A DNA stretch of 49,175 nt. Origin: Escherichia phage P818. Both the position numbers and the translations under genes were made by a program. Positions 3,574 to 49,175 of this stretch are shown here, in pieces. The notes under the pieces were generated by a model, which did not search any database, was not told where the DNA came from, and saw only the letters and a program-made list of their open reading frames with translations. Position 1 is the stretch's first letter. Each line of letters opens with the position of its first letter. The stretch lies in sequence record ON062054.1; one strand, 5' to 3'.

Positions 3574-3579
<6 letters not shown>
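2911..3579 (+). CDS. Hypothetical protein (possible regulatory or DNA-binding)
   Basis: 222 aa ORF with RBS; coiled-coil-rich C-terminal half; no confident family assignment. Confidence 0.5.
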
Positions 3580-3891
<312 letters not shown>

Positions 3892-8220: not shown

Positions 8221-8256
8221 GATGTTTAGCCTTTCGTGCGATTTATCGAAGTTTCA

Positions 8257-18014: not shown

Positions 18015-18048
18015 TTTAAATTTCCTTTTGGGTTAATGTACGTGATTG

Positions 18049-18078
18049 ATTATACATTGCTGAGCCTGAGGATTGCAA
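18049..18078 (-). promoter_or_regulatory. Sigma70-type promoter with extended -10 for the capsid gene
   Basis: Minus-sense TTGCAA-16 bp-TGTATAAT. Confidence 0.5.
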
Positions 18079-18112
18079 TAGTGGGTAGAATCTTTATTTT
18101 ATCTTAATTGAT

Positions 18113-18135
18113 CAAAAAAACCTCCCGAAGGAGGT
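18113..18135 (-). terminator. Intrinsic terminator
   Basis: Minus-sense CCTCCTTCGGGAGG followed by TTTTTTT. Confidence 0.65.
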
Positions 18136-18152
18136 CTTTGTTTTTATACCAA

Positions 18153-26019: not shown

Positions 26020-26074
26020 TTCTGCTTCCTCGTTCGTTTCGATGGGGTAACTATACAGCTACCCCGATTATGAG

Positions 26075-26093
26075 TTTTAACAAAAAGTGCTAT
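26075..26093 (-). promoter_or_regulatory. Dyad motif copy 4
   Basis: Minus-sense TAGCACTTTTTGTTAAAA overlapping upstream stop; 22 bp then TATAGT inside a hairpin, then TACCCCATCGAAACGAA box. Confidence 0.6.
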
Positions 26094-26485
26094 CGCTTAT
26101 AATTTCGCGCAATATCTTTCATTGCTCGCCATGCGATAAAGCAGAACATGCCAGGCTCGGTAAAGCGAAGTTTTCCGTACTGGCGGCAAAGTCTGCGGTG
26201 TCGGCGCTTATCACTAATGCGATCTACTTTCTTTTCAGTGACAACCAGGCGTCGTGGGCCTTCGAATAACTCAAATGTAACGGCTACACCACTCGCAAGG
26301 CTTATATTAAACTTGTTTGCTTTTTGCACTGCTTTCCATGTCACACCCGCGACGCTATCCTTAACATCAACCACATTTAAGTAGCGATTTGGTACTCGCT
26401 TAGCATCGTATACCTGACCGACCTGAAAGTAACCCTTTAACACCGGAGCCAGATGTGGCTTAATTTTGATGCAGCGTAATTTCAT
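26090..26485 (-). CDS. Hypothetical protein
   Basis: 131 aa; GAAGGGGAA RBS. Confidence 0.55.
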   Translation of the reverse strand: MKLRCIKIKPHLAPVLKGYFQVGQVYDAKRVPNRYLNVVDVKDSVAGVTWKAVQKANKFNISLASGVAVTFELFEGPRRLVVTEKKVDRISDKRRHRRLCRQYGKLRFTEPGMFCFIAWRAMKDIARNYKR

Positions 26486-26818: not shown

Positions 26819-26874
26819 CTTTCTTTCCTCTCGTTTGGTATGAGCTAACTATAACAAAACCCGCCGGGGCGGGT

Positions 26875-26894
26875 TTAGCAATTCGTGCTATTTA
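26875..26894 (-). promoter_or_regulatory. Dyad motif copy 5
   Basis: Minus-sense TAA-ATAGCACGAATTGCTAAA, then terminator-like hairpin CCCGCCCCGGCGGG plus T-run in the 22-bp spacer, then TATAGT. Confidence 0.6.
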
Positions 26895-28232: not shown

Positions 28233-28253
28233 TTTTAATAAATCGTGCTATTT
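28233..28253 (-). promoter_or_regulatory. Dyad motif copy 6
   Basis: Minus-sense AAATAGCACGATTTATTAAAA overlapping stop; 23 bp then TATAAT. Confidence 0.55.
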
Positions 28254-28592: not shown

Positions 28593-28657
28593 GGTGACAT
28601 CCTCAGTTGTTTGTGTTCACTTGACAGGAGACACTATAGCTAATGTCTCCGAGCAAG

Positions 28658-28676
28658 TTTTAACAAAAAGTGCTAT
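28658..28676 (-). promoter_or_regulatory. Dyad motif copy 7
   Basis: Minus-sense AATAGCACTTTTTGTTAAA overlapping stop; 22 bp then TATAGT inside hairpin GGAGAC...GTCTCC. Confidence 0.6.
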
Positions 28677-28891
28677 TCGATGAACCCAACGCGAACCGCA
28701 GCATCAAGTGTGATGTAATCATCAGCCGTCAGCGTTGAGTGAAAGGTGAAGATTCCTGCCTGAATGCCCTTTACCAACTGATCCCGCGTGATTCCGGAAA
28801 TATTGATGATGCCGCGACCGCCTCCAGTGCGCAGAACCACATCACCGATTGCACAAAATTCGACGCCTTTACTGTTAGTGTAGACTTGCAT
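28673..28891 (-). CDS. Hypothetical small protein
   Basis: 72 aa; start refined to MQVYTNS with AAGGAG RBS. Confidence 0.5.
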   Translation of the reverse strand: MQVYTNSKGVEFCAIGDVVLRTGGGRGIINISGITRDQLVKGIQAGIFTFHSTLTADDYITLDAAVRVGFIE

Positions 28892-29527: not shown

Positions 29528-29548
29528 GTTTAGCAAAAAGTGCTATTT
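29528..29548 (-). promoter_or_regulatory. Dyad motif copy 8
   Basis: Minus-sense AAATAGCACTTTTTGCTAAAC; 22 bp then TATAGT. Confidence 0.6.
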
Positions 29549-30217: not shown

Positions 30218-30272
30218 AATCATTTCCTCTTCGTTGTTGATAGGGTAATCATAGCTGACTACCCGATTTATT

Positions 30273-30292
30273 GTTTAGCAATTCGTGCTATT
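30273..30292 (-). promoter_or_regulatory. Dyad motif copy 9
   Basis: Minus-sense AATAGCACGAATTGCTAAAC overlapping stop; 22 bp then TATGAT then TACCCTATCAACAACGAAG box. Confidence 0.6.
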
Positions 30293-30512: not shown

Positions 30513-31078
30513 TAATATTCACCGTTCAGGAGAGATTTCGCTTTCCGGTAGAACTGGATGGCCTTCTCCACCTCATCGGCATCATAGCCATGAATCATGT
30601 CTGAGCTTGCCTGCAATTTGCTATGAGATTTGCGCTCAACCGATCTCCATGAGTCGCACCACTTGTGAATGTCTCTCCCATACATGCCCACCAGGTATGG
30701 GTGTGCATATATCTTGTCACCAATAAGGCAAATGATTCCCGCGTCCTGTAGTGATGGTAGGATATTGTCAATCAGGTTATTCATTACTCCATTACGCTCG
30801 ACGAACGGCTGGACCTTTCTGATCGCCTCATATGTTGAGCGAACTCCCACAACGCCTTTTCCATTTATCGTTTGCTTCCAGATCTTTTCAACCACGACGC
30901 ATTGTTCACGACTTAGGTTTGCGCGACGCATAACTTCCACTTCGCACCAGTACTTTTGTGACTGTCGGTATCCGTTAGCATTGATTGCTACTCGTAGTGG
31001 TGGAAGCCCATCTTCCGTAGCAATCTTCATAATCTGCTCATCTGTCAGCTTCTCTTCGTTAAAATCAAACATCCCCAT
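30512..31078 (-). CDS. Internally deleted paralog of the 34720-36303 replication ATPase
   Basis: 188 aa; N-terminus and a later block nearly identical in protein to the 527-aa protein; central Walker A/B region absent. Confidence 0.6.
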   Translation of the reverse strand: MGMFDFNEEKLTDEQIMKIATEDGLPPLRVAINANGYRQSQKYWCEVEVMRRANLSREQCVVVEKIWKQTINGKGVVGVRSTYEAIRKVQPFVERNGVMNNLIDNILPSLQDAGIICLIGDKIYAHPYLVGMYGRDIHKWCDSWRSVERKSHSKLQASSDMIHGYDADEVEKAIQFYRKAKSLLNGEY

Positions 31079-32231: not shown

Positions 32232-32249
32232 AATAGCACTTTTTGCTAA
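32232..32249 (+). promoter_or_regulatory. Dyad motif copy 10
   Basis: AATAGCACTTTTTGCTAA; 23 bp then TATTGT then TACCTCATCGAAACGAAGGAG and ATG at 32301. Confidence 0.55.
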
Positions 32250-32300
32250 TGACCGATCAGGTGTGATTCGCTATTGTTACCTCATCGAAACGAAGGAGAT

Positions 32301-32735
32301 ATGAAGATGAAGAACGGCGTAATTTACAAGCACAGTGACGGAACTACTCGGTTCGTCACGACCTCAGGCCGGATGTATATTTGGGCTTACGGAGCCTGGC
32401 GGTTCAAGGTACAGATGCATGAGGCGACGTATAATATGTTCCTCCGCGCTGCACGACTCAAAGATAACAAGGTGTTCGTTGCGAAGAGTCGCAAGGTATT
32501 CATGGATAATCGCGTCGCGTTCGATCCTATTGACTACCAGGCGGTTGAGTTCACTGGTCTAAGGTTGAGTAAAATTCGGTTGTTGCGCAGCGAACAGATT
32601 GCAATGATTCAGCAAAATTCGGCTATTGCGCACGCCACGGAAGCACGACATCGCCTCCTGACTGGTTATCAGCCCATCATCACGCCGACGCCGTTTTACG
32701 TGCATAAGCAACGACCACCGAAAATCCATAAATAG
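32301..32735 (+). CDS. Hypothetical early protein
   Basis: 144 aa; start refined to ATG after AAGGAG RBS. Confidence 0.55.
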   Translation: MKMKNGVIYKHSDGTTRFVTTSGRMYIWAYGAWRFKVQMHEATYNMFLRAARLKDNKVFVAKSRKVFMDNRVAFDPIDYQAVEFTGLRLSKIRLLRSEQIAMIQQNSAIAHATEARHRLLTGYQPIITPTPFYVHKQRPPKIHK

Positions 32736-32749
32736 CACTAATTGCTAAA
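32730..32749 (+). promoter_or_regulatory. Dyad motif copy 11
   Basis: AAATAGCACTAATTGCTAAA overlapping stop TAG; hairpin in spacer; CATAAT; CATCGAAACGAAG box. Confidence 0.6.
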
Positions 32750-33663: not shown

Positions 33664-34229
33664 ATAGAAAAAGAAGTCCAGACGGAAAATTTTCTGGTGA
33701 TCCGCTACTACCTGGAGGTTTTCATAATTGCAACTCATGCGGAATTAAAAAGGAGGCTGACGATAAAAACTTTAGAACAATAAATAAAGGAAAAACATGC
33801 GAGAGCCTAAGCAAAACTTGCAGAAAATGCGAGTATCAAAAAGGAAAGGATAAACACGCAAGGAACATGAAAAACCCTGAATTTGCAGATGCTAGAAGGG
33901 AAAGGTGCAGGAACTGGAGGAGCAACAACAGAAGTAAGGTGGCGCTTAAAAATTATCAAGCAATAGATAAAAAGAAAGGACTTACATGCACCATGACAAT
34001 TGATGATGTTGAGGAGTTGCAGTCAATGCCATGCTACTATTGCGGAGATACGGATCGGGTTGGTGCTGACAGGATTGACAACTCACTTGCTCACACGCGC
34101 AAAAACTGCCTTCCATGTTGCCCTGATTGTAATATCTGTAGGAGTAACACTTTTTCAGTTGATGAGATGATGGTGATAGGCAAAGCGATAAGACTCGTAA
34201 AGAAATCAAGAAATAGCACGAATTGCTAA
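33660..34229 (+). CDS. HNH-type endonuclease / zinc-finger protein
   Basis: 189 aa; multiple CxxC pairs and RIDNSLAHTRKNCLPCCPDCN motif. Confidence 0.6.
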   Translation: MNRKRSPDGKFSGDPLLPGGFHNCNSCGIKKEADDKNFRTINKGKTCESLSKTCRKCEYQKGKDKHARNMKNPEFADARRERCRNWRSNNRSKVALKNYQAIDKKKGLTCTMTIDDVEELQSMPCYYCGDTDRVGADRIDNSLAHTRKNCLPCCPDCNICRSNTFSVDEMMVIGKAIRLVKKSRNSTNC

Positions 34230-34230
34230 A
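34211..34230 (+). promoter_or_regulatory. Dyad motif copy 12
   Basis: AAATAGCACGAATTGCTAAA (translated as NSTNC-stop); terminator hairpin in 22-bp spacer; TATATT; CATCCCATCGAAACGAA box. Confidence 0.6.
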
Positions 34231-34294
34231 GCCCTTCGGGGCTTTTCCTGTATATTCATCCCATCGAAACGAAACACACTAAAGGAAAATAATC

Positions 34295-38267: not shown

Positions 38268-38289
38268 GTTTTAACAAAAAGTGCTATTT
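38268..38289 (-). promoter_or_regulatory. Dyad motif copy 13
   Basis: Minus-sense TAA-ATAGCACTTTTTGTTAAAAC; hairpin AGCGCC...GGCGCT in 22-bp spacer; TATATT. Confidence 0.6.
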
Positions 38290-40757: not shown

Positions 40758-40777
40758 GTTTAGCAATTCGTGCTATT
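40758..40777 (-). promoter_or_regulatory. Dyad motif copy 14
   Basis: Minus-sense TAA-TAGCACGAATTGCTAAAC; hairpin CCCGCCACCGCGCGGG in 22-bp spacer; TATACT. Confidence 0.6.
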
Positions 40778-42007: not shown

Positions 42008-42071
42008 TTTGTTTTCCTTGGTTGGTTACTTCGTTTCGATGAGGTGATAATACACAACCTCACCGATTCGC

Positions 42072-42092
42072 CTTTAGCAATTAGTGCTATTT
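42072..42092 (-). promoter_or_regulatory. Dyad motif copy 15
   Basis: Minus-sense AAATAGCACTAATTGCTAAAG overlapping stop; 22 bp then TATTAT in hairpin; CACCTCATCGAAACGAAG box. Confidence 0.6.
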
Positions 42093-44569: not shown

Positions 44570-44589
44570 GTTTAACAAAAAGTGCTATT
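44570..44589 (-). promoter_or_regulatory. Dyad motif copy 16 (shared by divergent helicase and HTH promoters)
   Basis: Minus-sense AATAGCACTTTTTGTTAAAC; 21 bp then TATTAT (44546-44551), 44-nt leader to helicase ATG; same site lies after the predicted start of the plus-strand promoter. Confidence 0.6.
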
Positions 44590-44600
44590 GAGGTGATAAA

Positions 44601-45074
44601 ATGAATGCAACTGATAAGCGTACTCTTAACGGCAATAACGGAACTATCCGCACAGAAGATAAGAAGCAGCGTAAGCGACCGTCAGGTTACTATGTTCTCA
44701 AGGATGAAGTAAAGGCCGGATTAAGAGCGCGACTTGATATTGTATTTGAGTTCTACGGCAGCAAGGCGAACATGGCTAAGCAATTAAAGGTTACTCGACA
44801 GGCCGTTGAAGAATGGTTTAAGCGTGGAATGATGTCGGCACGCGGCGCTCAACTGGCGCACAACAGATATAAGCGAACTGGCGAAGGGTTCCGCGCTACA
44901 TTCTGCCGCCCTGATCTGCAATTCGACGGGAACGGCAAGCCGCTAACGCTGCGTTGCAAAAAGCGTCACATGCTGCGCGTCGTCACCGAGGCTGAACTAG
45001 CCACTAAGCCTGAATGTCGCTCATGGCGAAAAATTAAAGCAGCAAACGAAGCAGCACGGAAAGCTAAAGAATGA
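44601..45074 (+). CDS. HTH DNA-binding protein (Cro/YdaS-like), candidate regulator
   Basis: 157 aa; HTH-like segment SKANMAKQLKVTRQAVEEWFKRG; basic C-terminal half. Confidence 0.55.
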   Translation: MNATDKRTLNGNNGTIRTEDKKQRKRPSGYYVLKDEVKAGLRARLDIVFEFYGSKANMAKQLKVTRQAVEEWFKRGMMSARGAQLAHNRYKRTGEGFRATFCRPDLQFDGNGKPLTLRCKKRHMLRVVTEAELATKPECRSWRKIKAANEAARKAKE

Positions 45075-45080
45075 CAATCA

Positions 45081-45096
45081 AGGGGCGCTAGCCCCT
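45081..45096. terminator. Hairpin between convergent genes (weak terminator)
   Basis: AGGGGCGCTAGCCCCT palindrome; no strong T-run. Confidence 0.35.
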
Positions 45097-45105
45097 TCAT
45101 CTGAT

Positions 45106-45654
45106 CTATCTATCTCCGTCACACCCAAACTCACCATGATAATAATTACTGGCTTTTAAGTACGCTTCACGCGCCGACTCCTTTGTGGTATGCCTTCCTA
45201 GCCATATTTTTTTATTATTAACCCATATCCACGCCGTGTACTTCCCTGTTTGCTTGCAGAATCCAACGCCTTTTACTCCTGATGTATTGTGAGATGGTTT
45301 TTTCATATTTCTATTGTTCTCAGATGATGACGCTTCCCTTAGGTTTTCTATCCTATTGTCAGTCCTGATCCCGTTTTTATGATCTATATACTTAGAAGGC
45401 CATTCACCTTTACAAAGCGCCCATGAAACCCTATGGCATTTAACGTCGAATCCGAAAAATCTGAAAACCTTATAACCAGATTTATGGACCGTTCCGGCCT
45501 CATCTCCAGATTTAACCCTATTAGATGTGCTTTTTACCCAAATTATAACTCCGTTGTCGTATTTAAGGTAATTCCTAAGCATATCAATACTAATCAATGA
45601 CTCTTTTGCCTTCATTAAATCAAAGTCTTTGCTCATTTCATTTTCCTCATTCAT
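45106..45654 (-). CDS. HNH endonuclease with AP2-like domain (copy 3)
   Basis: 182 aa; YIDHKNGIRTDNRIENLREASSSENNRN motif. Confidence 0.8.
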   Translation of the reverse strand: MNEENEMSKDFDLMKAKESLISIDMLRNYLKYDNGVIIWVKSTSNRVKSGDEAGTVHKSGYKVFRFFGFDVKCHRVSWALCKGEWPSKYIDHKNGIRTDNRIENLREASSSENNRNMKKPSHNTSGVKGVGFCKQTGKYTAWIWVNNKKIWLGRHTTKESAREAYLKASNYYHGEFGCDGDR

Positions 45655-45697
45655 GTGTTATGCTTTTAATCATACCAACCGTAACATGAGATAGTCA

Positions 45698-46639
45698 ATG
45701 ATGGATATGTATCAAAAAGAGGAAGTTATACCTTACATGAAGGGTCTTTGGAGGGAAGCTCTGCAATCAATATGTGGCCTTGATAACTCATACTTCACGA
45801 AGCGACATGGGCCATGCCCGCATTGCTTTGGAAAGGACCGTTTCCGGTGGACTGACGAACTAGAATCCCCTGGTGACGGCGGCGCGATCTGTAACGGATG
45901 TGGTAACGATAAAGGCGTCGGCTGGATGATGAAACTGACTGGTGAGCCTTACAGTGAAGTGATTAACATCCTTGGTAGATTCCTTGGTAAAGTTCCGCAG
46001 GATTACAAAGCTAAGGCTTACCGCAGGGCGTCTCGCGTACCGGAGAAAGGCCTTGGCAGGATGGCGGATCATGAGTCGTGCGTATCTGTAATGGAGCGCA
46101 CAGAAAAGCGCGAGAGCACCGATTTAAGCGTGTATGAGTGCCTAACCGAAGATTCATATGATGTTGGCGTAAAAGTGCGTCAGAATGGCACTGAGGAGCT
46201 AATACACGCACTACCGTGCTACATGGTCCACCATGACGGAATTGATGAGGATATGTGTAACGTCATGTTTGCTTATGATAATGGCGAATACACTTTCCTT
46301 GCGCGTGATTATTCTCGCGGCTCAGTGGTTAAGCTGGGGAGTGGTGAGGATGATGCAGCTATATATATGACAAGCGATCTGATTGATGGTTATCGTGTGA
46401 AGATGGCGACCAGTCAGGAAGTGTGGGTGACTTTCTCCCCTGAGAATCTTGAGATTGTTGCTTATCGTTATCGTGGCGATCGAGAGTTGCGAGTTGCTTG
46501 TGCGGCTGACGATTTGAGAACGCTTTACATGGCTGATGAGAGAGATTTGAAGGTCGTCGTGCCGAACGGTGGAAACTTCAAGATGGGCCTTGAGCGAAAG
46601 CTATATACGCCGCAGGATCTGATAGATAAGTATTCATGA
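45698..46639 (+). CDS. Putative DNA primase (zinc-binding N-terminal domain)
   Basis: 313 aa; CPHC...CNGC zinc-ribbon-like motif near N-terminus; adjacent to helicase. Confidence 0.55.
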   Translation: MMDMYQKEEVIPYMKGLWREALQSICGLDNSYFTKRHGPCPHCFGKDRFRWTDELESPGDGGAICNGCGNDKGVGWMMKLTGEPYSEVINILGRFLGKVPQDYKAKAYRRASRVPEKGLGRMADHESCVSVMERTEKRESTDLSVYECLTEDSYDVGVKVRQNGTEELIHALPCYMVHHDGIDEDMCNVMFAYDNGEYTFLARDYSRGSVVKLGSGEDDAAIYMTSDLIDGYRVKMATSQEVWVTFSPENLEIVAYRYRGDRELRVACAADDLRTLYMADERDLKVVVPNGGNFKMGLERKLYTPQDLIDKYS

Positions 46640-46644
46640 CAATT

Positions 46645-46668
46645 ACCCGCTACGGCGGGTTTTTTTAT
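46645..46668 (+). terminator. Intrinsic terminator after primase gene
   Basis: ACCCGCTACGGCGGGT hairpin followed by TTTTTTT. Confidence 0.75.
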
Positions 46669-46692
46669 TCCTTTGTTATGATACAATGCTCT

Positions 46693-46710
46693 TTAGCAAT
46701 TCGTGCTAAA
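46693..46710. promoter_or_regulatory. Dyad motif copy 17 (perfect palindrome TTTAGCA-ATTCG-TGCTAAA)
   Basis: Only perfect copy; lies between an extended -10-like TGATACAAT (46679-46687) and the tail fiber RBS. Confidence 0.6.
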
Positions 46711-46733
46711 CAACAATATAGGAGTTGATTATT

Positions 46734-49175
46734 ATGGCAATTTATGACTTAGGAGCTGCATCTCTAGCCGCAAATGGCGAGGTAGCTGGTGTTGGGACAA
46801 CGTGGAAAGCGCCGCTTACACTGATTCGTGTAGGTGCTACAATTGTGTTTAAAACTGAACCTGTACAGATTTACACAATCTCAGAAATTATCAGCGACAC
46901 TCGGATTAATGTTTACAACCCTAATGGTGAAACAGTTCCTGCTGGCACTGGTTACGCGATTCTTGCTCACGATGGGATTACTGTTCAGGGGTTAGCTCAG
47001 GATGTTGCGGAGACTTTGCGTTACTATCAGTCACGCGAAACTGAGGTTGCAGATGCTGTTGATGCTTTTAACAATTTTGACTCTGCGGATTTTGAATCAA
47101 AAGTAGCTCAGGTAAACACACAGCATGGCGACGTTGTTACTATTGGAGTCCAGGTTGCAAATGATGCCGTTCAGGTTTCAAATAATGCTTCATCAGCACA
47201 AATTAACGCTACCAATGCATCATCTGCCGCCGATAGAGCAGAAGCAGCCGCAAACTCCGTGTCTGGATCCTTAACCTTAAACTTCTCAGATGGAGGGACA
47301 GTAGAGTCTACAAATCAGCAGGTTTTATACATCAATGGAAGTGATGTTAGGTCTTATGTCTGGACTGGGTCATTTCCAAAGACGATTACAGCCGGTTCAA
47401 CTCCTGAAACGTCTGGTGGCGTTGACTTAGGCGCGTGGGTTAGTGTTGGTGATGCATCATTAAGGAGTGAGCTACTTACGCCATCATCAGGTATAAAAGT
47501 TGATTCAACCAATATTAATATAGCCGCCCAGCATCCTGCTACTAAAGACATCCCGTTAAACGCATTTGCGAGCCAGATGGTTAGTTTACTTAATTTTCAG
47601 GGGGTGGTAGCAGATGGCATAACCGATACACGAGCCGGGGTACAAGCCGCGATAGACGCGTGTGCCCTCGCTGGGGTTACGTTATATATCCCAGACGGTG
47701 TGTATGCTTTCGGAAACTTCTTCACCCAACCTTCTAATTCCAAGCTAGTTTTCGGTGAAAATGCGTGGTTTAAACTACTAAATAACACCACCTGGCCGGG
47801 ACTTGGTGGTATAGGTCACTTCCACAACACTGGAACTAACTATAATGATTTCCTTAATACGGACGGTGAAACTATTAAGTATGTAGAAGCTACCAATGTA
47901 GTCACTGTAGGAATGAAGCTAGACTGTAACAATATTGAGGGTGAAAACGGCATTTCATCGTCATGTGGTTCTAACATCCGCCATATCCGCCCTATAGTTA
48001 AGAATACAGTGCACACAAACACCGCTCTTGGCGGTAGGGCGTTTCAGATAGAAGGTGAGCTAAACCAAGATATTATAGTATCAGATGCCACTATTATTGA
48101 TTGCTCTATTGGGTGCAATAGTCAAGGTTTAGCAGGCAGCACAACTGCCAATACCCGCGCGGTAACTTACGACGGTATTTTCATGAAAAATGTTGGAGTA
48201 CCATTTAACATCGACGGGCAGGTATCAAACCCAGAAAACGCAGACGGCAGAGTGCATTCAGTAACCGCATACAATGTAACATTGCATAATTGCGGGGGGC
48301 CGAGAGCACCATTTGCGTCCCAATTAGACGGCGGCATCATTTGTGGGGATAGGGGGGCTGGTTTAGCCGTATATGGTCTTCGCTTGGTAAATGATGATTC
48401 TTATGGTGGTATAGGTGCGGTGTTTAGAGGGGTTATTTATAACGTAGCTATACACGACGCGGATTTAACAGCCCCTTATATTAGTGCCATTGTCGACCAC
48501 ACTCCGCCGGGGTTTGGCTCACCATCGCCGGCAGCATTAGGTGGTTTTGTGTCGACAAGGAACGTTAAAGTAAACGCGAATATTGACTACATAGCTAATG
48601 GGCCTAACAACAGTATAGGTCCTCACAGCCTTAGATTAGATATAGATATGGCTAAGGCATCTATTACAACATTGTTTGGTTCGAGCATAGCCACGGACAA
48701 TACCACGTACGCTATGGTGGAAATACTGGATACCAACACCGGAACAAGTAGCGGGTATCGGTCCTTTGGAGACATATACCGTGAGGGTAATTCACCGGAT
48801 GTTTGTATAAAAAGAAAGGATTCAATCGGTCCTATAGTCCCGATTGATGCGTCCGGCGCGAGTCTAACCTTTACCCCTAATGGGACCCAACGTTTTGTTA
48901 AAAATGGAAATACCGTCACAATATCTATCAATGTAACTTACCCAACCACAGGGGACTCTCGCTCTGCGACCATAGCAGGTATTCCGGTTCCTGGAGTAGC
49001 AGGAGTAAATTATTGTGGCATTGGTACTGTTCTTAACGGTGCCGCTGTTGGTACTATTGCGGTGGTTAAAGGCGGGGAAAATTTTATAAGACTTTTAACT
49101 CCAACCGGCACCAATACCCTAAACAGCGATTTATCTGGTAAAGATATTTCTATAACACTTACGTATATGTTCTGA
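46734..49175 (+). CDS. Tail fiber protein
   Basis: 813 aa from ATG 9 nt after AGGAG; Gly/Thr/Asn-rich repetitive central and C-terminal region; stop is the last codon of the window. Confidence 0.65.
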   Translation: MAIYDLGAASLAANGEVAGVGTTWKAPLTLIRVGATIVFKTEPVQIYTISEIISDTRINVYNPNGETVPAGTGYAILAHDGITVQGLAQDVAETLRYYQSRETEVADAVDAFNNFDSADFESKVAQVNTQHGDVVTIGVQVANDAVQVSNNASSAQINATNASSAADRAEAAANSVSGSLTLNFSDGGTVESTNQQVLYINGSDVRSYVWTGSFPKTITAGSTPETSGGVDLGAWVSVGDASLRSELLTPSSGIKVDSTNINIAAQHPATKDIPLNAFASQMVSLLNFQGVVADGITDTRAGVQAAIDACALAGVTLYIPDGVYAFGNFFTQPSNSKLVFGENAWFKLLNNTTWPGLGGIGHFHNTGTNYNDFLNTDGETIKYVEATNVVTVGMKLDCNNIEGENGISSSCGSNIRHIRPIVKNTVHTNTALGGRAFQIEGELNQDIIVSDATIIDCSIGCNSQGLAGSTTANTRAVTYDGIFMKNVGVPFNIDGQVSNPENADGRVHSVTAYNVTLHNCGGPRAPFASQLDGGIICGDRGAGLAVYGLRLVNDDSYGGIGAVFRGVIYNVAIHDADLTAPYISAIVDHTPPGFGSPSPAALGGFVSTRNVKVNANIDYIANGPNNSIGPHSLRLDIDMAKASITTLFGSSIATDNTTYAMVEILDTNTGTSSGYRSFGDIYREGNSPDVCIKRKDSIGPIVPIDASGASLTFTPNGTQRFVKNGNTVTISINVTYPTTGDSRSATIAGIPVPGVAGVNYCGIGTVLNGAAVGTIAVVKGGENFIRLLTPTGTNTLNSDLSGKDISITLTYMF

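Follow-up and report, generated by a model that had tools for sequence, protein, structure and literature searches.

The stretch of DNA analyzed here, hereafter the window, is the complete, circularly permuted genome (49,175 base pairs, bp) of Escherichia phage P818 (ON062054.1), a T1-like siphophage of the Drexlerviridae whose nearest relatives are p111 (genus Nouzillyvirus) and ESCO41. In the 94-bp gap between its DNA primase gene (45698-46639, plus strand) and its tail-fibre gene, we find a 19-bp box at 46692-46710 that lies just downstream of a predicted -10 element, faces backward relative to the tail-fibre gene, and is conserved in both position and orientation among related phages. The box has the sequence of a marbox, the site read by the host regulators MarA, SoxS, and Rob, and at other promoters of the window the same box is found at about -42 in the layout of their class II promoters. 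We infer that the focal copy is a reversed marbox used as an operator, at which a host MarA/SoxS/Rob-type monomer would repress or delay a factor-independent late tail-fibre promoter, a proposal that we consider evenly balanced between right and wrong. Protein binding at the focal box, the identity of the binder, the sign of its effect, and any effect upon timing are all predictions made from the DNA sequence.

Anatomy of the primase/tail-fibre gap

The gap reads, in order, primase stop codon, terminator, TGaTACAAT, four bases, box, nine bases, ribosome-binding site (RBS), and ATG. The primase gene was taken from the list of open reading frames (ORFs), and its counterparts in p111 and T1 are annotated as DNA primase/helicase. 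The primase unit is closed by an intrinsic terminator (46645-46667, plus strand) identified by a terminator scan, which consists of the stem-loop ACCCGCTACGGCGGGT (46645-46660) and a run of seven T residues. It has both the GC-rich hairpin and the T run expected of such an element, its RNA folds at -12 kcal/mol (z-score -3.4), and a terminator occupies the same place in essentially all of the 73 related tail-fibre upstream regions considered below. Beyond it lies TGaTACAAT (46679-46687, plus strand; TG at 46679-80, hexamer TACAAT at 46682-87), which has by its sequence the TG at -15/-14, the single base, and the TAnnnT of an extended -10 sigma-70 promoter, and which has no -35. This is the predicted tail-fibre promoter, and with +1 taken as 7 nucleotides (nt) past the -10 hexamer, transcription would begin at about 46694-46696. 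It should be noted that a simple promoter scan demands a -35 and consequently does not list TGaTACAAT; it lists TAAACA-17-TATTAT, from which the start would fall after the ATG. The Shine-Dalgarno sequence AGGAG (46720-46724, plus strand) stands 9 nt ahead of ATG 46734, which the ORF and the alignment of homologs identify as the real start of the tail-fibre gene (46734-49175, plus strand). The N-terminal domain of the encoded protein is conserved across the Drexlerviridae, and the 3' part of the gene is mosaic.

The focal box reads TTTAGCAATTCGTGCTAAA on the plus strand and TTTAGCACGAATTGCTAAA in its canonical, minus-strand reading. A first-pass annotation of the window had described it as the palindrome TTTAGCA-ATTCG-TGCTAAA, which is real, although the start that it gave (46693) is one base off and the element occupies 46692-46710, beginning 4 nt after TACAAT. 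The same annotation had placed it downstream of an extended -10 and upstream of the tail-fibre RBS, in contrast to the other copies, which it placed at -42. Both statements can be read directly from the sequence, since the distance from the end of the box to the -10 in the canonical copies is 19-21 nt with a mode of 20. The focal copy is not alone in this, as the copy at 44571 likewise lies beyond a plus-strand -10. Relative to the predicted promoter, the focal box extends from about -3 to +17 with its center at about +7, and is thus a marbox located within the polymerase footprint of a predicted factor-independent promoter, which is the arrangement of an operator.

The box is a marbox and its canonical promoters resemble class II promoters

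The palindrome pattern TTTAGCANNNNNTGCTAAA, searched over the window with up to 3 mismatches, returned 17 matches compared to 3.2 expected, and none of 100 shuffles reached 17. The canonical form of the box is asymmetric, AATAGCAC-N4-TTGCTAAA, and 16 copies in the window fit one canonical layout: the box, the 19-21 nt spacing, a TATAGT-like -10, often a leader CATCGAAACGAA, an RBS, and an ATG. Each of the 16 points toward its gene, none is accompanied by a -35 hexamer, and all are centered at about -42 with start sites inferred from the -10. The same box in the same layout is present in about 25 copies in T1, about 21 in p111, and 16 in the distant Vibrio phage Vc1, with no difference in the box between the window, T1, and Vc1. 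A scan of viral contigs for the box gave, among the matches listed, multi-copy occurrences on contigs of 45-53 kilobases (kb), with single chance matches predominating.

The published marbox consensus is 5'-GCAHWWWWTGYYAAA-3', an asymmetric sequence to which MarA, SoxS, and Rob bind as monomers (PMC6900184). To describe the asymmetry and marbox fit of the phage box, 57 copies were pooled from the window, T1, and p111. Exact agreement with the consensus was found in 28/57 copies and a single mismatch in a further 23/57 (≤1 mismatch in 51/57), and exact matches number 8-11 per phage genome compared to 0.05 in shuffles. Within the left GCAC element, G5 is present in 57/57 copies, whereas the position mirroring it holds C (37 copies) or T (20 copies), corresponding to the Y of the marbox. 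Position 8 of the box is C and its mirror is A, and the two ends differ as well, with outer bases of AA at one and what amounts to TT at the other. The two-fold symmetric, equally conserved half-sites of a Cro/cI operator are therefore not seen across the 57 copies. At the level of individual sites, the copy at 2756, AATGGCACGTTTTGCTAAA, is identical at 17/18 positions to the marbox of the mar operator as taken from the E. coli K-12 sequence (GATTTAGCAAAACGTGGCATC). The E. coli micF promoter, measured in the same manner, consists of GCACTGAATGTCAAA, 20 nt, TAGAAT, and the annotated 5' end, a spacing equal to that of the phage promoters. Class II marboxes are forward, clustered near -41, and lack a recognizable -35 (PMC10268841, PMC12052159, PMC8811837), and the canonical phage copies have all of these features along with the consensus. 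From their sequences, the canonical phage promoters look like class II mar/sox/rob promoters with the layout of micF.

The focal copy differs from this arrangement. A weight matrix derived from the canonical copies scores it at 21.5 bits on the minus strand only, with a plus-strand score below 12 bits, and it agrees with the marbox at 14/15 positions on the minus strand and 13/15 on the plus strand. Leftward of the focal box, the sequence at 19-21 nt is GGAATA/AGGAAT with no TAnnnT, and the same is true of Rtp-like and T1-like relatives. The forward box with a -10 at 19-21 nt downstream that defines the class II layout is thus not found here, and lacking such a -10, the focal box cannot work as a class II activating site. 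A leftward promoter at the focal site was rejected for the same reason, as no lineage examined has a -10 at 19-21 nt.

The canonical copies on the minus strand are located at 1245-1263 (a class II-like promoter, identified by layout and matrix), 26076-26094 (heading the leftward packaging/structural gene block), 26874-26892, 28234-28252, 28659-28677, 29529-29547, 30274-30292, 38270-38288, 40759-40777, 42073-42091, and 44571-44589, the last of which is the box of the leftward helicase promoter and also lies downstream of a plus-strand -10. Those on the plus strand are at 2756-2774, 3575-3593, 32232-32250, 32731-32749, and 34212-34230. Apart from 2756 and 44571, characterized as already described, and 1245, these were assigned by layout with one exception: the copy at 28234 scores 25 bits, was missed by the palindrome pattern, and was added by the weight matrix, which also added weak boxes at 8225 and 45048. 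One of the 17 pattern matches, 30974-30992 (GTTAGCATTGATTGCTACT), is inside an ORF, has no downstream -10, scores <12 bits, and is probably a chance match. Two further interpretations of the box were rejected. The GGCAC...TTGC of copy 2756 had prompted consideration of a sigma-54 promoter (TGGCAC-N5-TTGCW), which is ruled out both by a GG-to-GC spacing of 9 rather than 11 and by the presence of a sigma-70 -10 at 20 nt. Likewise, the TTGCTA of the box was rejected as a -35, as it is 22 nt from the -10.

In most canonical promoters, the segment from the box to the start site also holds a strong inverted repeat whose loop or 3' arm includes the -10 (e.g. GGGGTAgctgTATAGTTACCCC). Examples occupying the 36 nt after the box are found at 26040-26075 (minus strand), 28623-28658, 30238-30273, 1209-1244, and 42037-42072. 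The mean fold z-score of these segments is -2.8, with values below -2 in 9/16; some are the terminator of the upstream gene and others have no T run. The leader CATCGAAACGAA occurs at or just past the predicted start of about eight canonical promoters (e.g. 3622-3633, 32281-32292, and 34259-34270) and is present in T1 and Vc1 too, and Vc1 additionally carries CAACGAAAC 8 times and ACCAATCAG 18 times near RBSs. These three sequences could be a shared signal in the 5' untranslated region (UTR) for processing or translation.

Conservation of the reversed box at tail-fibre promoters

A profile of the conserved N-terminal domain served to gather tail-fibre homologs from viral contigs, and 73 distinct upstream regions were compared, with a region regarded as box-bearing if it contained a box of 20 bits or more. 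A box is present in 28/73 regions and is backward in every one of the 28. In 27 of these, a TGn plus TAnnnT hexamer ends 4-5 nt upstream of the box. The Rtp-like group, for example, has TGcTACAAT-ccaa-CTTAGCAATTCGTGCTATT, while the T1 group, whose promoter is otherwise unrelated, has TTGCAA-17-TGaTAAAAT-cattg-CTTAGCAATTCGTGCTATT. Among representatives of 10 lineages, the pairwise identity of the box is 84%, compared to 39-40% for both flanks. From the excess of box identity over the flanks together with the fixed geometry, we can conclude that both the site and its position are under selection.

The symmetry of the focal copy behaves quite differently. The first-pass annotation had singled it out as the sole exact inverted repeat among the 17 copies, and it is indeed the only 0-mismatch match to the palindrome pattern, and hence the only copy in the window with 7-bp arms. 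Even so, nine other window copies are perfect over 5-bp arms (TAGCA-N5-TGCTA), and the focal copy differs from them in the outer two bases only. Perfect 7-bp arms are confined to the window, ESCO41, and p111. The ordinary asymmetric box (...TGCTATT) is found in 25/28 regions, one region is intermediate, and the others are the window and ESCO41. The arms are 6 bp long in one lineage and 5 bp in most, and the stem is broken in three (TTATCA in lineage L143, TTACCA in L169, and TTAACA in L199), in each case without compensation. The clade-limited symmetry and the uncompensated stem breaks therefore indicate that symmetry is not the selected feature and that an RNA hairpin is unlikely. The 7-bp symmetry of the focal copy stems from a two-base change (ATT to AAA) particular to its clade and serves no evident role. 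Occlusion, which had been proposed from the geometry, thus retains its argument from position, strengthened by the 28/28 backward boxes and 27/28 TGn -10 elements, and loses its argument from perfect palindromy; similarly, the palindrome-binding dimer that was implied becomes a less likely binder, given the asymmetry of the 57 copies and the variable recognition helix of the phage Cro-like protein described next.

Candidate binder and proposed mechanism

Pfam scans of 30 non-structural phage ORFs identified no AraC/MarA-type protein, and a phage-encoded AraC/MarA homolog was accordingly rejected as the binder, the sole regulator-like protein having a Cro fold. This Cro-like helix-turn-helix (HTH) protein of 157 amino acids (44601-45074, plus strand) is a homolog of T1 gp23, matches phrog_2856 ('transcriptional regulator'), and occurs in 824 phage records, which amount to nearly the whole family. 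The box at 44571 covers about +14 to +32 of the factor-independent promoter of its gene, TTGGAT-17-TATAAT. The putative recognition helix is among its least conserved segments (TRQAVEEW, SNQTVQGW, SNSLLTTW, and CCVRLTNAY in different homologs), and its invariant blocks are outside the HTH, namely the N-terminal DKRxxNGNNGxxRxxDxKxR and the C-terminal FCRPDLxFDxNGK...C. These conserved blocks may themselves read DNA, and the protein could act through a DNA arm or as a partner of polymerase or of a host factor. On balance, the box is probably bound by a host MarA/SoxS/Rob-type protein, with the phage Cro-like protein an outside candidate and some smaller chance left for something else. The host monomer is favored because the box is a consensus-strength asymmetric marbox and because the Cro-like helix is variable. 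Rob is the abundant, constitutive member of the three and would therefore be their probable representative at the box.

According to the operator proposal, the tail-fibre gene would be its own transcription unit, with the strong terminator ending the primase unit and the -35-less TGaTACAAT restarting transcription about 40 nt before the ATG. A protein on the box would occupy DNA that polymerase needs to hold in the open complex, and the operator reading was chosen because a protein seated over the start site should obstruct RNA polymerase. Tail-fibre transcription would be lowered or delayed while that protein remained in supply. How the block would be released is more speculative; replicating phage DNA, with 17-25 consensus sites per copy, might titrate a limited pool of regulator. 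Repression by MarA, SoxS, and Rob is known where a marbox overlaps the core promoter, as at pbpG, with purA and hdeA also cited (PMC12052159).

A number of points weigh against the operator proposal. The focal copy is weaker (21.5 bits) than the copies of its relatives (26-31 bits). Two large Drexlerviridae groups have no box and keep the terminator with a TGcTATTAT or CATAAT promoter; given that they retain both, the promoter evidently works without the box, which would make the box a dispensable modulator. MarA and SoxS are scarce in unstressed cells, we know of no precedent for a lytic phage depending upon host stress regulators, and one member of the family is reported from Vibrio cholerae. 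Furthermore, a Cro-like HTH protein is encoded throughout the family, with a box overlapping the promoter of its own gene, and a 19-bp pseudo-palindrome centered at -42 would suit a cI-like dimer as well. The strict orientation of the box is unexplained by a plain steric block, and it may just be inherited. MarA can also activate flgBP2 by distorting DNA from a site inside the core promoter (PMC12781870). Lastly, our literature search returned no transcript mapping, binding, or expression data for any T1-like phage.

Alternative explanations

The box might instead be the operator of a dimer of the phage Cro-like protein, which would activate from -42 and repress its own and the tail-fibre promoters, with the perfectly symmetric focal copy as the best-fitting operator. 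Such a dimer would agree with the family-wide distribution and regulator annotation of the protein, with the box just downstream of its own promoter, and with the 5-bp dyad of the box, whose half-site centers are 10 bp apart. We nonetheless regard it as unlikely, as the 57 copies are asymmetric in the manner of a monomer-bound marbox, with GCAC invariant versus YYAAA, and the fit to the marbox, mar, and micF is beyond chance (about 2e-7 per position; 8-11 exact matches per genome compared to the 0.05 expected). In addition, the recognition helix is variable while the box is constant across genera, and a repressor accumulating in infection would shut late genes off rather than delay them. A reversal of sign, in which the reversed box stimulates the tail-fibre promoter, either by bending or unpairing DNA near the -10, in the manner of MarA at flgBP2, or from a downstream position, like some activators of the AraC family, seems less plausible still. 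Distortion of base pairing can allow MarA to activate from a core-promoter site (PMC12781870), and the fixed 4-5 nt to the -10 with a fixed orientation (28/28) suggests a stereospecific relation with polymerase. However, flgB is a sigma-28 promoter with a melting defect, whereas the tail-fibre gene has a good extended -10 that is box-free in relatives, and the focal site covers the start site and the downstream duplex held by polymerase.

The box could also be a functionless relic of a leftward promoter or a recombination by-product at the mosaic tail-fibre boundary, for it points left toward neither a gene nor a -10, the tail-fibre gene is mosaic, and the two large groups mentioned above have no box. 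We consider this improbable in view of the 84% identity of the box versus 39-40% in its flanks across 10 lineages and a box-to--10 distance that is constant in lineages with otherwise unrelated promoters. It is more doubtful yet that the palindrome acts as RNA, in the form of a 5'-terminal hairpin that stabilizes the tail-fibre mRNA or masks its leader. The isolated 19-mer does fold at -4.9 kcal/mol (z-score -4.3) and the predicted start is at its left edge, but a transcript from 46694 retains a 5-bp stem only, and the whole leader has a z-score of -0.13 versus shuffles. The uncompensated stem breaks of L143, L169, and L199 are likewise not those of a structured 5' UTR, and 16 promoters employ this same box as DNA. 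Least credible of all is that the ATT-to-AAA change of the clade renders the box readable in the forward direction, to form with TATTAT (46730-46735), 19 nt downstream, a class II-like promoter. The plus strand agrees with the marbox at 13/15 positions, with both mismatches in the central W tract, the 19-nt spacing is inside the canonical 19-21, and the promoter scan lists TAAACA-17-TATTAT; against this, the start would be at about 46742, past the ATG, with no later in-frame start codon that has an RBS, the plus-strand matrix score is <12 bits, and TATTAT is absent in other lineages.

Boxes at other late promoters

Each strong terminator of the structural block in the window precedes a TG-type -10 that has no -35, i.e. 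TGgTATAAT for terS, TGTATAAT for the major capsid gene, and TGTATAAT again for gpJ, and the tail-fibre promoter belongs to the same class. Between the terminator plus TGTATAAT and the ATG of gpJ, the weight matrix places a weak forward box of 16.4 bits (8225-8243, minus strand) that overlaps the RBS. This forward box of the host-specificity gene gpJ is kept at 15-16 bits in p111 (4202) and T1 (25020), i.e. in three genera. It may represent another late-promoter site of the operator type, or the RBS may account for its conservation. Ahead of the major capsid gene in T1 (15069, minus strand) and p111 (14118, plus strand), a backward box forms the spacer and -10 of the near-consensus promoter TTGACG/TTGACC-16-TGcTATTAT, and Vc1 has a backward box at the same place (5713, minus strand). 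No such box was found in 18015-18150 of the window, which has TTGCAA-18-TATAAT instead. T1 carries further copies ahead of terS and the tape-measure chaperone gene. The box at 44571 is canonical on its helicase side, and on the side of the Cro-like gene it lies between the plus-strand TATAAT and the RBS. Judging from these sequences, boxes inside or just downstream of factor-independent promoters appear to be a recurring, though patchy, theme.

These observations would fit a much broader picture, in which the Drexlerviridae wire almost their whole transcription program to host MarA/SoxS/Rob and use reversed or downstream marboxes as late-promoter operators, and this we put forward as a tentative and rather doubtful extension. 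Most marboxes would then be class II promoters for early, replication, and lysis genes, with operator sites at the tail fibre, gpJ, and (in T1, p111, and Vc1) major capsid genes. Titration by replicating DNA would cause the activated promoters to fade and the late ones to open, creating an early-to-late switch without a phage switch protein. If true, the progress of phage development would depend on the bile-salt, oxidative, or antibiotic stress that the host experiences, and salicylate, bile salts, oxidants, and mar mutations should all affect how the phage grows. Host resistance genes would lose regulators to the phage, and infection would perturb the mar/sox/rob regulon. A common family of coliphages and Klebsiella phages, which includes therapy candidates and laboratory contaminants, would thereby depend upon regulators of intrinsic antibiotic resistance.

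For the focal site, the proposal assigns one box two opposite uses in a small lytic phage, as an on-switch at -42 and as a start-site brake on a late structural gene, and it provides a testable handle on temporal control in T1-like phages, whose transcription program is essentially undescribed. The larger lead, which may matter more than the focal site, is the resemblance of T1-like phage promoters to class II mar/sox/rob promoters. Our literature search found no link between T1-like phages and MarA/SoxS/Rob, but the T1 and Rtp genome papers were outside of it and a prior description is possible; it likewise found nothing relevant on marboxes in phage, T1 promoters or start sites, or the box sequence. 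The papers on T1-like phages that were consulted give generic sigma-70 predictions or nothing (PMC4070988, PMC13164509, PMC8421802).

Several features of the surrounding region were also observed. The 3' two-thirds of the tail-fibre gene (47535-49175 of the window) is 93.7% identical to phage vB_EcoS-Ro145clw (42 kb). No other part of the 4.2-kb query (45000-49175) is shared with that phage, which makes the receptor-binding module mosaic. The end of the window is exactly the stop codon of the tail-fibre gene. The weak box at 45048-45066 (plus strand), at the end of the regulator gene, corresponds to the T1 primase promoter (box-20 nt-TAACAT) and has no -10 here. An HNH endonuclease gene (45106-45654, minus strand) is inserted on the opposite strand between the regulator and primase genes.

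Comparison with known regulatory systems

On the operator proposal, the focal site would be a variant of a known logic that turns the site of an activator to repression. The lambda cI repressor at OR2/OR3 activates PRM from about -42 and represses where its operator overlaps a promoter. As in lambda, one operator family is proposed to have its sign of regulation set by position, and the activating center is the same -42. The lambda operators, however, are read by a symmetric phage-encoded dimer, whereas the phage box is asymmetric and marbox-like, and the Cro-like protein of the phage has a variable recognition helix. At T4 middle promoters, a MotA box centered at -30 replaces the -35 and is read by phage MotA/AsiA. 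There too a lytic phage swaps the -35 for an activator box and keeps the sigma-70 -10, but the box examined here is at -42 and resembles the site of a host regulator, and no phage AraC-like protein was found.

The comparison with direct repression of the pbpG type involves the same MarA/SoxS/Rob family, an activator at -41 that represses inside the polymerase footprint (PMC12052159), and the center of the focal box at about +7 falls between the limits of -35 and +25 within which that study accepted marboxes regardless of orientation. The two differ in that the pbpG marbox is in the promoter spacer, whereas the focal site, a predicted operator, is downstream of the -10 and over the start. Closest in layout to the canonical phage promoters are class II Mar/Sox/Rob promoters such as micF, with which they share a forward marbox, 20 nt to the -10, a center near -41/-42, and the lack of a -35. 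The focal copy is reversed over the start site and is therefore not class II. The phages are further set apart from these host promoters by the sheer number of their boxes, with 16-25 of consensus strength per 49 kb, which is far above chance.

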